From IMG/VR virus record IMGVR_UViG_3300045988_171772, positions 160,001 through 224,000 of that record: a DNA stretch of 64,000 nucleotides. One strand, given 5' to 3'. The notes beneath the pieces are model-generated. The model made no database searches. It was given only the letters and a program-made list of their open reading frames with translations, and had not been told where the DNA came from. This DNA is from a virus. The first letter of the stretch is position 1. Each line of letters starts with the position of its first letter. The translations under genes were made by a program, and so were the position numbers. Shown in pieces: positions 599 through 60,583 of the stretch.

Positions 599-1420
599 TC
601 AACCAGGACCAAACTTCTGGTTGATAGAATACTCACCAAGCCACTTGTAATAGCAATTGCCAATATCGATTCGATTGTTGGATCGATACTCATTCTTCTT
701 TCTGGTACAGAGCATCTCCTCTAGAGAATGTACCGTATAGTCGGGACTACGATTTCCCAATGCCATCTCATAACAGTCTTCTCTTGCCTTATAGACAACA
801 TCCCGATTCCATACATGCTTATTATAGAGATCCATAGAGATAATCTCAAATCTGGTATCACACTTCTGATCCCATAAGAGAGTATGAACTCCAAAGAGAT
901 TCAGATCTGTACATTTCCATCTCTTTGGAGAATTCACAAACTTTATGGTTTTTTCAAGCTTTGCTTTCAGAGCTGGTTCCACCATGAATTTGAAAGTTAT
1001 CTTCTGCTCTGGTAGTGGCAATACCGGGCCAAACAGAATACAGGTCTGCAGATAGTCAATAATACCACACAATGCATGATCAAAGACATTCTCTATATCC
1101 AGATACTCTTTTGAGTTATGATACATTATACCAGGATCAAAGTCCCATCGTATTGATACAATCGGAATCTCAGATAGACCATTCTGCCAATAAGCCTGAT
1201 AAGCACCCGAAGAACCATTCTTCACAAACTCAATCAAGATATAGAAGGTCTTCTTCGCACTGAGGCTAATTGACTTCATATAGAATTCTTGATTCCGTAT
1301 ATGAGGTTCATGCTTCTTCAGAATCTCATTCAGATCATCTAGACTCTCTGGTAAGGGAGTATCGACCCCACCAAACATCTTAACGCTTTGCATAAAAGTG
1401 TTATAACGCCTCCATTTCAC
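599..1420 (-). CDS. hypothetical protein (273 aa; start uncertain)
   Basis: Long ORF on the same strand as and just upstream of the previous gene. The GTG at 1420 has no good SD; an in-frame ATG at 1393 follows GGAGG by 15 nt. Confidence 0.6.
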   Translation of the reverse strand: MKWRRYNTFMQSVKMFGGVDTPLPESLDDLNEILKKHEPHIRNQEFYMKSISLSAKKTFYILIEFVKNGSSGAYQAYWQNGLSEIPIVSIRWDFDPGIMYHNSKEYLDIENVFDHALCGIIDYLQTCILFGPVLPLPEQKITFKFMVEPALKAKLEKTIKFVNSPKRWKCTDLNLFGVHTLLWDQKCDTRFEIISMDLYNKHVWNRDVVYKAREDCYEMALGNRSPDYTVHSLEEMLCTRKKNEYRSNNRIDIGNCYYKWLGEYSINQKFGPG

Positions 1421-1569
1421 CTTCCAAGATAGGGGCCTCTACAGCTGACTCCAATACACCTCCTTATATCACTATAATCCTATCTTGTCTATCTAAATCA
1501 TATATGGTTTTATTATTTTATCTGAAGTAAGTCTCTCTTATAGTATTACCTAGATGAATATATTTACAA

Positions 1570-2170
1570 GTGGAGCGTAAGCGAAACGGCTCAGATGAAT
1601 TCATACACTATATCCAATCTACCTGGAGGCAATACCGAGTTGTCTAGAAAACTTGTCAGACATGGACGAAAGCGGAGCGGCGATTTATGTGCCTGGAACG
1701 CAGTGCAAGGTCATAAATCGGTAGTACCATGTCTGGGGGTGTGGGGTGATGTACCCCCACGCGCCTAAGCGAACGAAACGAAGTGTAGTGAGTGTGGCAA
1801 GACTTTCCTATAAAAATTTAAATCGATATTAGGTGGAAGCTATTCCTAGCGGACACCTAATATCGCACTCATAAACTAAAGTTGTGATCTTCTTCTATAT
1901 AATTCTTATTATAGAAGAATAATTTTGGCGGAAGGTTTTGAAGATTCATTGAAACGCTGGCTTTTACGTTTCCGACACTACGTGTCTCCAACTAGCCAGC
2001 TGGGGTATTTCTTTCTAAAGAGAAAGAAATACAAGGTAAAAGATTAAAGATAGGAAAACGGAAAAAGTAAACGAAACCAGTGTATCAAGATGTTTACGAT
2101 ACCAGTTATAGTATATGCTCCTAATACTAGAGTATTGACCTTCCGCCCCTATTCAATCGTTGCGCGGTCC
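1570..2170. ncRNA. candidate large structured non-coding RNA (family unassigned, strand unresolved)
   Basis: No SD-preceded ORF exists in the 1.1-kb gap 1421-2565. The core is visibly more G+C-rich than its flanks. Nested perfect helices: 1657-1665/1727-1735, 1681-1689/1712-1720, 1823-1834/1854-1865, 1890-1899/1910-1919, long-range 1927-1936/2138-2147, 1956-1962/1994-2000, 2005-2016/2021-2032. Confidence 0.45.
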
Positions 2171-2565
2171 GTAAAAATTTATTACACCTCTTTCTCCAAT
2201 GAAATACGAGGATTTTGAGTATAATAAGATTTTGGACCCTATTTCAAAAATGATTTCCCAAAATAAAATCTGCAAGGCCTTTGCAAAAAATGTTGAGATG
2301 ATGTCCTCCAACTAAAAGATGAAATTAAAAAGATACCAAAATCTCATTATATCTCTTATGAGACATGCGAAATGAGATTTTTTGAGTGAGCAAAGATTTT
2401 TTATGTCGAGTTTTAGCATACCTTCTCTGAGAGCCTTCTATATCTGCTCTGAGAGAAGTCGATTTGCTCTAAAACCGTTTGAGACTTTTGAAGGTATTTC
2501 ATCTTCATATGACTCGGTATATAGGCTTATCCTAGAACTCACTAATAAAATTCATCCTGGAGGTA

Positions 2566-3414
2566 ATGAATACAATGGCAAGCGAATTTAATTATTACGC
2601 AGTCATGGAAGATACCTCACCAGCTGGGTATAATACACGCTCGAATATGGGCGTTCAAGAGAATGTCGTGCATGGAGAAACGAGGTCTCTTCGGTTCCGT
2701 GCATGTCTTCAGAGTTTTGGAAGACGAAATCGGAATGGAAGATTGTGGAGAGCTGATATGATGAAGAAAGCTCTGGCAGCTCCTACCATTGTCGAACTTA
2801 TCCAGAAAGGTGACTTTGCTGGAGAGAATGGTCATCCCATTGCTCAGGTTGGTGAAACTTCTATTTCCAGAATTGCTACGATTGATCCTAACAATGTGTG
2901 TCATCGTATCACTGCATTGGAATGGAGTGGAGATCTTGTCTATGGTACCGTAGAGACGATTGATGATATCAATGGTCCTGGTGCTAAGTTGATGAGATCC
3001 ATTATGCAAGGTATGGAACCTGCATTCTCTGTGAGAGCATTGGTACCTCAGAGAAAGAATGCGGATGGTACCTGGGATGTTACTGGAGTAGGTAGAGTGA
3101 TTACCTATGACAGAGTATTCCTTCCTTCTCATATGGAAGCTTATAGAGACCAGAATGTGGATATCAAGATGGTCACTCATGACAATACCTATCAGCAGGT
3201 ATTGGAAAGTTTTGTCTATCCCTATATCTCTTCTCATAGTGATAGAGTGAAGTATGCTACTGACAATACTCAGGTAGCTATGGAGAGTGCACATTATGAT
3301 CCTAAGTCTGGATTGTATAGTGTGAATACTTCTGACAGAAATAGAAGCAGAGTATTCGTTCCTATTGAGAAGAGACTTCAGAAAGAGATGAATGATCTCC
3401 TGAAGAATCTGTAA
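2566..3414 (+). CDS. prohead core protease, T4 gp21-like
   Basis: GGAGG lies 3 nt before the ATG. Segments RRNRNGRLW, GENGHP, WSGDLVYGTVETIDDINGPGAKL and AFSVRAL run colinear with T4 gp21 NRNKRLYP, GELNHP, WKGNDVYGRARVIEGDHGPGDKL and GVSSRGLG (recalled from memory). Confidence 0.8.
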   Translation: MNTMASEFNYYAVMEDTSPAGYNTRSNMGVQENVVHGETRSLRFRACLQSFGRRNRNGRLWRADMMKKALAAPTIVELIQKGDFAGENGHPIAQVGETSISRIATIDPNNVCHRITALEWSGDLVYGTVETIDDINGPGAKLMRSIMQGMEPAFSVRALVPQRKNADGTWDVTGVGRVITYDRVFLPSHMEAYRDQNVDIKMVTHDNTYQQVLESFVYPYISSHSDRVKYATDNTQVAMESAHYDPKSGLYSVNTSDRNRSRVFVPIEKRLQKEMNDLLKNL

Positions 3415-3794: not shown

Positions 3795-3813
3795 ATTATT
3801 TACTCCTTTCTTA

Positions 3814-4506
3814 TTAAACCCGTCCGATTTTCCGGATGATGTTCATGCCGTCTCCAGGTTTAAGGCCCAGAAGCTTTTCAAGCTTTACGACGGCTGTATA
3901 GTTTTCATATCCGGTCGTGTACACGTTTTCGCTGTTTCCATATACAACATTGATCTTGGTATCATCCCCAAGATCAAACGTGATGGATTCGACGAAACCG
4001 AAATCTCCCTGGTCGAGGACATATTCATTGACCGGAATAATCCTGTCACCGATCTTCAGGGTATAAGCATACTCAGATTCAGACCAGTCTTCACTGAGTG
4101 CTGATTTCGAATCCATTGAGATGGAGAATGCATCCGCTTCATCGTCATCGTAACGATGAGCATATCTCATCTCCGAGCACATTTCAATGAGCTCCTCCTC
4201 AATAAACGCTTGAAGACTATAAATAGAGAAGGATCGGCATCCCAGTCTTTTTGTCAGGATGTCGACGTGCTTATCGGATTTAAGGTCGTAGGCCTTACCC
4301 CCGAAGTGAATACTGGCTTCGAAGTCAGTATTATACGTATCGTCGGCAGACCCAACTACCTCCAGCCGGCAACATTTTCCGTTCTGGAGATACACCATGT
4401 CGGTAAATTTAACCCTGATGTAAAACTCGGGATAATGTTCAGTGCCATCGAGGAACTGAACTTTCCGAGTTTCAATATAACGGATACCCACAGTTTTAGT
4501 TTTCAT
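3814..4506 (-). CDS. hypothetical protein (230 aa)
   Basis: ORF with AAGGAG 9 nt upstream of the ATG. Confidence 0.7.
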   Translation of the reverse strand: MKTKTVGIRYIETRKVQFLDGTEHYPEFYIRVKFTDMVYLQNGKCCRLEVVGSADDTYNTDFEASIHFGGKAYDLKSDKHVDILTKRLGCRSFSIYSLQAFIEEELIEMCSEMRYAHRYDDDEADAFSISMDSKSALSEDWSESEYAYTLKIGDRIIPVNEYVLDQGDFGFVESITFDLGDDTKINVVYGNSENVYTTGYENYTAVVKLEKLLGLKPGDGMNIIRKIGRV

Positions 4507-4532
4507 TTTTATCTTTCTCCTTTTTTGATTTA

Positions 4533-4889
4533 TTAACCAAGATTATCCAGATTCAAAGAATCGAAGAGAGCGATTGCTTTTTCAACCTTTTCGGAAGAGA
4601 CAGTGATATCTTCACCACTCTCTTTCTGGATGATGGCGATGATTAAGGGACGGATGGTATTGAGCATCTCTTCGACTCTATCATAGTCTCTCAGTACCGC
4701 ATTGGTATTTTCCTCGATCTTGCGAATTGCTTCATCCGCTTCTTTGAAACTCCCATACTTGATACCAAGCATCCGGCATTCATGTTTAGTCTCTTCACAG
4801 TTTTTGATTATTTCTTTCCGATTCTTTTCCAGAGTCCATTCTGCTGCCATGAACCGGACGATCAGATTGTTAATATCGTTGATATTCAT
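4533..4889 (-). CDS. hypothetical protein (118 aa, helical/coiled-coil-like)
   Basis: ORF with AAAGGAG 7 nt upstream of the ATG. Confidence 0.7.
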   Translation of the reverse strand: MNINDINNLIVRFMAAEWTLEKNRKEIIKNCEETKHECRMLGIKYGSFKEADEAIRKIEENTNAVLRDYDRVEEMLNTIRPLIIAIIQKESGEDITVSSEKVEKAIALFDSLNLDNLG

Positions 4890-4966
4890 ATGAAATCTCC
4901 TTTGTGATTTATTTTATTTCTGCTTCCATACTGAGATAAAAGGTTCCATCTTCCTCTTATCTTACT

Positions 4967-4978
4967 AAAATAATATAT
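4967..4978 (-). promoter_or_regulatory. promoter-like motif ATATATTATTTT
   Basis: One of 10 intergenic copies of RTATATTATT, each oriented toward the next gene. This copy lies 78 nt upstream of the ATG at 4889. Confidence 0.35.
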
Positions 4979-6520: not shown

Positions 6521-6606
6521 TGGTGCTGAAGATGGGAGTTGAACCCATATGGTATCACTACCAAGAGACTTAAGTCTCTTGCGTATGCCATTTTCGTCAC
6601 TTCAGC
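6521..6606 (-). tRNA. tRNA-Leu(UAA)-like, class II, CCA encoded, non-canonical anticodon arm
   Basis: The reverse complement reads GCTGAAG-TG-ACG-AAAATGGCATA-CGC-AAGAGACTTAAGTCTCTT-GGTAGTGATACCAT-ATGGG-TTCAACT-CCCAT-CTTCAGC-A-CCA. It has a 7-bp acceptor, a GG in the D-loop, a canonical T-arm and a long variable arm, with UAA centred in the anticodon loop. Confidence 0.75.
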
Positions 6607-20509: not shown

Positions 20510-20597
20510 GCTGGTGTGTCCGAGTGGTTTAAGGAAGCAGTCTTGAAAACTGTCGGCTCGAGAGGGTCCGTGGGTTCAAATCCTACCACCAGCGCCA
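20510..20597 (+). tRNA. tRNA-Ser(UGA), class II, CCA encoded
   Basis: GCTGGTG-TG-TCC-GAGTGGTTTAA-GGA-A-GCAGT-CTTGAAA-ACTGT-(16-nt variable arm)-GTGGG-TTCAAAT-CCTAC-CACCAGC-G-CCA. Canonical 7-nt anticodon loop with U33 and anticodon TGA. Confidence 0.9.
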
Positions 20598-43651: not shown

Positions 43652-43696
43652 ATTCTCTTGATAGAGATCGGGTTCATGTATCTCTATCAAGAGAAT
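43652..43696. promoter_or_regulatory. 16-bp perfect inverted repeat (13-nt spacer) overlapping a promoter-like motif: operator-like
   Basis: ATTCTCTTGATAGAGA (43652-43667) / TCTCTATCAAGAGAAT (43681-43696). The last 5 nt overlap motif 43692-43703. Confidence 0.4.
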
Positions 43697-43703
43697 AATA
43701 TAT
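43692..43703 (-). promoter_or_regulatory. promoter-like motif ATATATTATTCT
   Basis: Copy of RTATATTATT, about 75 nt upstream of the 42140..43618 gene start. Confidence 0.35.
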
Positions 43704-43792
43704 GGAAATCTTATGAGTCTTTTTCGATACCCGTAAGATTTCCATATATTTGATTTTATTTTCCACACTTTATGAGTGAAGATAGTATAGTA

Positions 43793-60020: not shown

Positions 60021-60222
60021 GTCTCTATACCTCCTAGATAGTTGGATTTGATAAGCTTATCGTGGTGTTTTGAGGCTAAGGGATCCAGGGGAAAGAAAAG
60101 ATTTAACAAATGAGTAAAGTCGTATTTGTATTCTCCTTCATACGACTGACATTTCTGAAATCATTTGCCCATGTTCAGTTTTTACCTTTCTTTTCCTATC
60201 ATAGTTGAATCTCCTTTGTCTG

Positions 60223-60264
60223 AATCCCCAGATACCTAGCGCCAACTATAGGTATCTGGGGATT
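60223..60264 (-). terminator. second hairpin of a tandem terminator
   Basis: 15-bp perfect stem AATCCCCAGATACCT (60223-60237) / AGGTATCTGGGGATT (60250-60264). Confidence 0.5.
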
Positions 60265-60274
60265 TGTTTTCTTG

Positions 60275-60320
60275 AATAAAAAAGAAAAAAGATGGGGACC
60301 CGTAAAAAGGTCCCCATCTT
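60275..60320 (-). terminator. intrinsic terminator
   Basis: 12-bp stem AAGATGGGGACC (60289-60300) / GGTCCCCATCTT (60309-60320), followed on the minus strand by TTTTTTCTTTTTTATT. Confidence 0.8.
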
Positions 60321-60346
60321 TGTGCTGGCATGGAAGCCATTGAGAT

Positions 60347-60583
60347 TTACTCAACAGCTTCCGTGGCAGCGGTGTCGGGCAGGTCGTCTTCCAGGTCACC
60401 CAGATCGACATCCTCGGCAGCCTCGGTGGTAGCCTCTGCAGCCGCAGTAGCCGCCAGCTTGCTCTTGTCGATGGCATTCTTGATGTCACCGACACCATTG
60501 GCGATCATGATACCGCCGCAACCGACAGCGCCAGCGCCGATAGTGATTTTGCCGATGCCCTTCAAAATTTCAGTGTTGATCAT
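60347..60583 (-). CDS. small glycine-zipper membrane protein with acidic tail (78 aa)
   Basis: GAAAGGA lies 8 nt upstream. Contains GIGKITIGAGAVGCGGIMIANGVG followed by an A/T/E/D-rich tail. Strongly G+C-elevated. Confidence 0.65.
   Translation of the reverse strand: MINTEILKGIGKITIGAGAVGCGGIMIANGVGDIKNAIDKSKLAATAAAEATTEAAEDVDLGDLEDDLPDTAATEAVE

Follow-up and report, generated by a model that had tools for sequence, protein, structure and literature searches.

The window analyzed here is a 64,000-nucleotide (nt) stretch covering positions 160,001 to 224,000 of the IMG/VR virus record IMGVR_UViG_3300045988_171772, and it comes from a phiKZ/AR9-like jumbo phage of the human gut. Near its left end lies a gap of 1,181 nt (1394-2574) between a minus-strand gene of 264 amino acids (aa) and a plus-strand prohead protease gene. 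We found that this gap is a lineage-specific noncoding insert between two divergent promoters and that it contains a conserved 570-nt core (1527-2097). Tentatively, and at somewhat less than an even chance, we infer that the core is transcribed from the plus strand as a lineage-specific noncoding RNA made of local stem-loops. An earlier note on this DNA, made from its letters alone, had suggested a single large structured RNA of about 830 nt at this place, and several of the features on which that suggestion was based turn out to be common to the intergenic DNA of this phage group.

The gap is noncoding. With the neighboring genes taken to start at ATG 1393 and ATG 2575, it is the longest stretch free of open reading frames (ORFs) in the window, as the earlier note had seen, and the runner-up measures 448 nt. 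Gene callers leave the same gap empty in the related contigs L001-L004. All six frames hold between 17 and 29 stop codons, with each of the three kinds present; reassignment of a single stop therefore opens no ORF, and stop-codon reassignment, which an odd transfer RNA (tRNA) in the window had brought to mind, was ruled out. The peptides of the nine longest ORFs in the gap matched no Pfam or PHROG family at E values up to 1. Among the small ORFs, one of 57 aa (1595-1768) has lost its ATG in the related contigs L021 and L022, carries about four non-synonymous changes for each synonymous one and is frameshifted in L022 by an insertion of 1 nt, while those of 38 and 62 aa are frameshifted in L004. 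A search of the gap for a conserved short ORF with coding-type substitutions thus found none. With no open frame, family match or coding-type substitution pattern, a protein-coding gene, whether standard or recoded, was rejected, and the noncoding character that the earlier note gave to the region is borne out by the stops, the empty family searches and the substitutions in the small ORFs.

How is the gap preserved among related phages? Contigs encoding the same protease provided the haplotypes L001-L006, and a metagenome scan with a 20-mer from the core added L021 and L022. Across the gap, L001, L003 and L006 are 95% identical to the window and L002 and L004 are 94% identical. L021 and L022 differ greatly from one part of the gap to the next. 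The core (1527-2097) is 92-97% identical in these two contigs. To its left, 1400-1526 is 65% identical, with insertions, and the 264-aa gene is about 72% identical. To its right, 2098-2240 is 54-59% identical; about 2240-2500 is deleted in L021, and the L022 alignment ends near 2215. The partial contig L005 has the right-hand layout of L021, so the variable right-hand part of the gap (2098-2520) is deleted or replaced beyond 2240 in both. The same right-hand part is better kept in L001 and L004, where 2098-2240 is 95.8% identical and 2301-2500 is 90-92% identical, with an 11-nt insertion near 2492 in L004. Positions 1620-1880 are 96-97% identical to the window across five haplotypes. The jump in identity over 1527-2097 therefore marks out a discrete 570-nt core common to two otherwise different contexts, and these alignments show a discrete module conserved across diverged flanks.

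Beyond these contigs the core was not found. Searches of 50,697 phage records with blastn and tblastn gave no DNA match and returned only proteases of about 30% identity, and protein-based and core k-mer scans of a viral contig collection gave no match. Two core k-mers were likewise without a match in a genome collection of 185,579 species, which gives no indication of a host-derived or widespread element. Neither paralogues of the core nor antisense targets for it were detected in the window or the related loci. More distant relatives, L007, L020, L011, L013 and L016, carry unrelated sequence in this position, in gaps without ORFs that measure 0.6-1.1 kb. Their proteases are 90% (L007), 90% (L020) and 76% (L011) identical to that of the window, and the left gene, compared for L007 and L011, is 27% and 24% identical, respectively. 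All that the five gaps have in common is the protease promoter and ribosome-binding site (RBS) in the last 50 nt or so, together with AT-rich low-complexity words. L014 and L018 have no gap, and ordinary genes occupy the slot, namely a GH25 lysin of 374 aa and a 98-aa ORF. Since unrelated gaps or genes occur at the same position, the slot upstream of the protease is a variable region. As a separate observation, the gaps of L007 (3156-4000) and L011 (3182-4000) have a G+C content of 25-27%, fold with a z score of about -13 and contain perfect stems of 18-21 base pairs (bp); L007 also has iteron-like direct repeats near 3850-3930, with AAAAAATGGTGTAAA and ATGAAATTGAAAAA each present twice.

The composition of the core is unusual. 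The earlier note had described 1570-2170 as enriched in G+C, which is true of about 1600-1900 only; 1801-2200, with 34-36%, equals the baseline of the other intergenic DNA (35.4%; the coding average is 42.8%). G+C amounts to 50.5% in 1601-1800 and 52.5% in 1620-1800, peaks at 54% in 1661-1810 and is 30% in 2201-2400. The G-rich block at 1620-1800, read on the plus strand, contains the nested helices 1657-1665/1727-1735 and 1681-1689/1712-1720 and a hairpin at 1736-1765 (core 1741-1746/1755-1760), and the G+C-richest noncoding 150-nt segment of the 64 kb falls inside it. On the plus strand, the block has a purine fraction of 0.60 and a GC skew of +0.24, and the whole core has 0.555 and +0.13. 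The sense strands of the phage's genes likewise lean toward purines (0.50-0.54).

This asymmetry weakly favors the plus strand, the strand of the earlier proposal, and other strand-specific signals, each weak, point the same way. The RNAalifold consensus energy of the core (545-nt alignment) is -143.6 kcal/mol on the plus strand and -126.9 on the minus strand. Variable columns are rarer at paired positions on the plus strand (27/305 versus 40/237, p = 0.006; p = 0.36 on the minus strand), and when the same test is made with single-sequence folds p ranges from 0.69 to 0.0006. In the window's own fold, 7 of the 15 pairs that are changed in L001 are kept through G-U pairing on the plus strand, compared with 3 of 19 on the minus strand. 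Broken pair columns in a 331-nt sub-alignment number 4 on the plus strand and 10 on the minus strand.

The core lies between promoter-like elements that face away from each other. A motif (A/T)TCTGTATATTATT has 11-12 clear intergenic sites in the window, oriented with the downstream genes (core starts, on either strand, at 4969, 7110, 10868, 21543, 36501, 37316, 43694, 50139, 57551, 60669 and 60830). A position weight matrix (PWM) built from 11 of these sites finds 12 sites of at least 16.5 bits, cleanly above background. The early promoter of phage AR9 is AAATATATATTAT-N6-G, within an extended AT-rich consensus whose TATATTAT core lies about 6 nt upstream of the start (PMC5312081), and this core is common to the TCTGTATATTATT sites of the window. 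An early-type promoter-like site for the left gene occupies 1482-1518 on the minus strand (core TATATGATT; 9.5 bits, rank 16 of about 128,000 positions), and its core is kept in L021 and L022 although the surrounding 1400-1526 is only 65% identical. On the other side, a late-promoter-like element, AGAAC-N7-TAAAAT (2532-2551), and a GGAGG RBS precede the protease gene on the plus strand. This element matches the AR9 late consensus, AACA-N6-TA/G, at all but one base (PMC5312081). AGAAC-N7-TA is conserved in four lineages, and the element lies at 3955-3975 in L007 and at 3953-3972 in L011; with these two lineages the window shares no part of the gap other than 2532-2574. Provided that the left-gene and protease promoters are the only ones, the core, situated between them, is in neither mRNA. 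The promoter-like motif AATATATTTAC of the earlier note does not recur (26 matches with up to two mismatches, where 25.5 are expected), and TAAGCGAA(C)GAAACG is indeed present in two copies but has no statistical weight.

What kind of transcript would the core make? Under the reading that we favor, it would be an independent plus-strand transcription unit whose RNA would consist of local stem-loops, most of them independent of one another, and would not adopt a single ornate multi-domain fold. The 5' domain, at about 1620-1800, would be G-rich, and AU-rich perfect hairpins would come after it at 1824-1865, 1890-1919, 1956-2000 and 2005-2032. In the haplotype of the window, the transcript could extend to 2338-2386, where an A-run, an 11-bp stem and T6 form a candidate bidirectional intrinsic terminator on the plus strand, similar in form to the other intergenic hairpins of the window that have an A-run and a T-run. 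This hairpin has two G-C pairs in an AU-rich stem and is the only one of the seven in the gap with a T-run. The ends of the RNA are inferred, and as to its function our guess is a stable regulatory or decoy RNA.

How exceptional is the structure of this locus? Every helix listed in the earlier note is present as a perfect inverted repeat, one of them with an offset (1824-1835/1854-1865 instead of 1823-1834). Being packed with perfect helices, however, which the note took to be special to the locus, is a description that fits all intergenic DNA of the phage group. Perfect hairpins of at least 9 bp occur at 5.9/kb in the gap, 4.5/kb in other intergenic DNA (6.4 kb) and 0.76/kb in coding DNA, and the stems in the gap are shorter (9-12 bp, compared with a median of about 13 in other intergenic DNA). 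The loci L007, L011, L013, L016 and L020 have 3.5-10.7/kb in their gaps and 5.4-12/kb in their other intergenic DNA. Over the whole window and these five loci, perfect inverted repeats of 9-21 bp amount to 4-12/kb in intergenic and 0.5-1.7/kb in coding DNA. About a quarter of those in the window are flanked by an A-run on one side and a T-run on the other, like bidirectional terminators. Folding the 830 nt against dinucleotide shuffles gave z scores of -6.6 to -7.2 on the plus strand and -5.7 on the minus strand. As a control, 25 other 830-nt segments of the genome averaged -3.5 (standard deviation 1.7, minimum -6.2), which places a z score of about -7 barely at the edge of the genome's own background. 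Moreover, 49 of the 320 windows of 200 nt have z scores of -3 or lower, and the strong fold signal in the gap is that of two AU-rich perfect hairpins within 1801-2000 (z = -6.5). Because hairpins fill the intergenic DNA, helix counts and shuffle z scores by themselves over-call structured RNAs.

Comparison of the ten listed helices over five haplotypes showed that 93% of the cells pair; most pairs are invariant and therefore carry no information. The sole changes in the nested helices of 1620-1800 (1656/1657 versus G1736/G1735) keep G-U pairing on the plus strand. The 12-bp perfect hairpin at 1824-1865 on the plus strand is extended by a 3x3 purine internal loop (GAA/GGA), a 4-bp tip and a UUCC loop; it is invariant in four of the five haplotypes, and G1833>A in L022 produces an A-C mismatch on the plus strand and a G-U pair on the minus strand. 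In the 10-bp AU-rich plus-strand hairpin at 1890-1919, which overlaps an early-promoter-like site at 1896-1904, two stem pairs are broken in L021 and L022. Next comes the plus-strand multibranch domain of the earlier note (1927-2147), in which 1927-1936/2138-2147 encloses 1956-1962/1994-2000, 1974-1986, 2005-2032 and 2067-2072/2092-2097. Its inner helices hardly vary. The closing helix is perfect only in the window and L001, has four mismatches in L004 and six in L021 and L022, and is paired in 68% of its cells. With this helix broken in three of five haplotypes, the domain as drawn does not hold. The 12-bp hairpin at 2005-2032 has an inverted loop (2017-2022), which reads GTTTTA in L001 and L005 and TAAAAC in L004 and L021, and its top stem pairs are not kept; the inversion is a DNA-level flip, typical of inverted repeats. 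A different closing helix, 1565-1573/1876-1886, with one compensatory change from G-C to A-U, is treated as no more than a lead, as it appeared in the 331-nt alignment only, amounts to a single evolutionary event and was dropped by RNAalifold when the full core was folded.

Several of our results weigh against a dedicated transcript. The conservation of the core is compatible with selection but would be explained equally well by a single recombination breakpoint near 1527 together with an indel, given that the neighboring protease is just as similar (98% identity for its promoter and gene in L021). The known haplotypes number only five, all nearly identical, and neither the viral contig collection nor the genome collection contributed any of them. 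On the plus strand within the gap, there are only degenerate copies of the AR9-type early promoter, TATATAATT at 1896 (9.6 bits at 1882-1918, rank 15, the highest score in the gap) and TATAGTATT at 1539 (2.9 bits at 1525-1561), and the virion RNA polymerase of AR9 is reported not to tolerate departures from its consensus (PMC5312081). At the other end, the terminator that the earlier note suggested at 2338-2383 is real as a hairpin plus T6, but it is weak, degraded in L001 and part of a segment that is deleted in L021 and L005, and a consensus terminator scan of 1300-2700 called none. The hairpin density of the gap is the ordinary intergenic level of the phage, and the G-rich block alone folds no better than shuffles on either strand (z = -1.7). 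Covariation is absent: 0 of the 92 listed pairs are changed on both sides, a comparison of low power, with five haplotypes of at least 92% identity, that does not refute the local hairpins. The RNAalifold covariation term on the 545-nt core is a penalty (+1.44 on the plus strand, +2.24 on the minus strand), and stems 1890-1919, 2005-2032 and 2067-2097 have lost pairs without compensation.

The main rival reading is that the gap is an untranscribed or passively transcribed regulatory spacer, ordinary intergenic DNA unusual only in its length and producing no dedicated stable RNA. Its hairpins would then be the same terminators, insulators or protein-binding palindromes that are found in other intergenic regions. 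The near-intergenic density and short stems of the hairpins, in this gap as in the five related loci, are consistent with such a spacer. So are the perfect Watson-Crick character of the stems, the flip of a loop between haplotypes at the DNA level, the roughly equal folding of the two strands, the position between divergent promoters and the presence of unrelated sequence or ordinary genes at this place in related lineages. We nonetheless consider the spacer somewhat unlikely. It leaves unexplained why 1.2 kb is kept in an 88%-coding genome, why a G-rich, purine-skewed block atypical of intergenic DNA is present and why the signals lean toward the plus strand. A T-run is found in only 1 of the 7 gap hairpins, compared with 13 of 29 elsewhere, a difference that is not significant. 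A cis element acting at the DNA level, for example an origin of replication or a packaging site, in which inverted repeats were combined with an AT-rich unwinding stretch, would also fit the position between divergent promoters, the 30% G+C of 2201-2400 and the retention of a long gap in several lineages. It would likewise fit the syntenic gaps of L007 and L011, which have long perfect inverted repeats as well as direct repeats resembling iterons. We regard it as improbable, because the gap of the window has no direct-repeat array, tandem repeats or iterons, its AT-rich part is the part deleted in L021 and L005, and L014 and L018 do without any gap. Furthermore, GC skew tracks gene orientation, and its cumulative minimum in the window is at 10-12 kb, not in the gap.

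A decaying remnant of one or more lost genes, or a hidden gene for a small protein, in the variable slot upstream of the protease is quite improbable. The slot does hold real genes in L014 and L018, the G+C of the G-rich block is nearer to the coding than to the intergenic average, and an RBS-like CCTGGAGGCAAT at 1622-1633 copies the protease RBS 10 nt before an in-frame TTG. Against this stand the stops in every frame, the lack of family matches for the ORF fragments and the frameshifts, lost ATG and excess of non-synonymous changes in the small ORFs described above. Neither an origin nor a gene remnant has positive support. Least probable of all is the original proposal of one large ornate RNA of the GOLLD/ROOL kind, of about 830 nt with its multibranch domain closed by 1927-1936/2138-2147. 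GOLLD and ROOL RNAs, which phages or prophages encode, are several hundred nt long and free of ORFs, often lie close to tRNA islands and have many stems and pseudoknots backed by covariation (PMC12286853). The gap resembles GOLLD (RF01998) and ROOL (RF03087) in size, absence of ORFs and phage context, and its z score of about -7 against shuffles would suit such an RNA. However, cmscan with Rfam 15 (4,227 families), the check suggested in the earlier note, detected, at gathering thresholds, nothing but two tRNAs across the whole window, and in 1300-2700 at E values up to 10 it gave six chance-level matches, with no GOLLD, ROOL, HEARO, OLE, raiA or introns among them. Nor did 6S RNA match by gathering score or at E values up to 10. 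The note's own statement that the region has no tRNA, tmRNA or RNase P signature agrees with cmscan, and ARAGORN found no tmRNA. GOLLD, ROOL, HEARO, OLE, raiA, introns, RNase P and tmRNA are thus excluded as far as covariance models tell, and nine related loci yielded tRNAs only at gathering thresholds. Unlike GOLLD and ROOL, moreover, the gap does not adjoin a tRNA island (the nearest tRNA genes, at 6521-6606 and 20510-20597, are 4 kb and 18 kb off), is without covariation and is known from just the five near-identical gut-metagenome haplotypes. The one long-range helix fails in relatives, its 3' arm (2138-2147) lies outside the conserved core, and the long-range pairs that RNAalifold predicts shift with the length of the alignment. 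We take the giant-RNA proposal to be largely refuted.

A plus-strand transcript of local stem-loops, the reading that we favor, can also be compared with other features of phage genomes. AR9 operons end at predicted hairpin terminators (PMC5312081), and palindromes with an A-run, a stem and a T-run likewise lie between genes throughout the window. Unlike these, six of the seven hairpins in the gap are without a T-run, and they cluster in a 1.2-kb gene-free stretch instead of standing one by one at the ends of genes. Nothing comparable to the G-rich nested helices at 1657-1765 is present in the rest of the window. Another comparison is with phage morons, which are autonomous inserts consisting of a promoter, a gene and a terminator. 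Like a moron, the core is a discrete module with sharp limits of conservation, located between two conserved genes and replaced in some lineages. Unlike a moron, it lacks a protein gene and has no more than a candidate promoter and a candidate terminator.

Why would a phage maintain such an insert? A broader, more speculative possibility, which we think rather unlikely, is that the core is an undescribed structured noncoding RNA of a clade of human-gut AR9/phiKZ-like jumbo phages, and that it sits in a positional hot-spot upstream of the protease in which lineages carry different, fast-evolving, hairpin-rich cassettes. If this were true, the pattern would be in keeping with RNAs caught up in an arms race, such as decoys or anti-defense RNAs. 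If the core is a real RNA, it adds a lineage-specific noncoding RNA to the uncultured jumbo phages of the gut and flags the slot upstream of the protease as a site of rapidly changing noncoding cargo. If it is not, the locus still has value for calibration, as perfect hairpins are present in all intergenic DNA of these phages at 4-10 per kb.

The assignment of the window to a phiKZ/AR9-like phage agrees with its genes, which include a split RNA polymerase beta subunit, a DNA polymerase, a topoisomerase II and large virion proteins. The left neighbor of the gap (599-1393, minus strand) has no assigned function. The right neighbor (2575-3414, plus strand) encodes a T4-type prohead protease (Pfam S80/S77; PHROG "head maturation protease"), whose start is placed at ATG 2575 because homologues show the same start. 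The cultured phages nearest by protease, at only about 30% identity, are Staphylococcus S6/PALS_2-type, Bacillus Goe21 and Yersinia phiR1-37 jumbo phages. Closer relatives are metagenome assemblies only, and the two contigs from the DNA search (L021 and L022) are from human gut.

Some further observations concern other parts of the window. The tRNA at 6521-6606 (minus strand) is of type II and has an anticodon loop that is one base short (CTTAAG); ARAGORN reports it as 'tRNA-???', and its Rfam score is 38.6 bits. The same tRNA in L001 (8002-8085) and L021 (7167-7250) has the loop CTTAAGC and is a normal tRNA-Leu(UAA), with 55.6 and 45.8 bits, respectively, which suggests either a defective copy in the window or a mistake in the assembly. 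To the right of the protease, the genes in 3803-4900 are 20-56% diverged from L001 and L002, while both flanks are 0-10% diverged; on this comparison, the segment is a second mosaic replacement near the gap. Elsewhere, no 200-nt window folds with a lower energy than 60201-60400 (-93 kcal/mol, z = -8.2), and the G+C peak of the whole window (62%) is at 60391-60540, at or beside a small Gly/Ala-rich ORF. Finally, two adjoining 17-bp perfect hairpins occur at 43652-43750, with a z score of -10.

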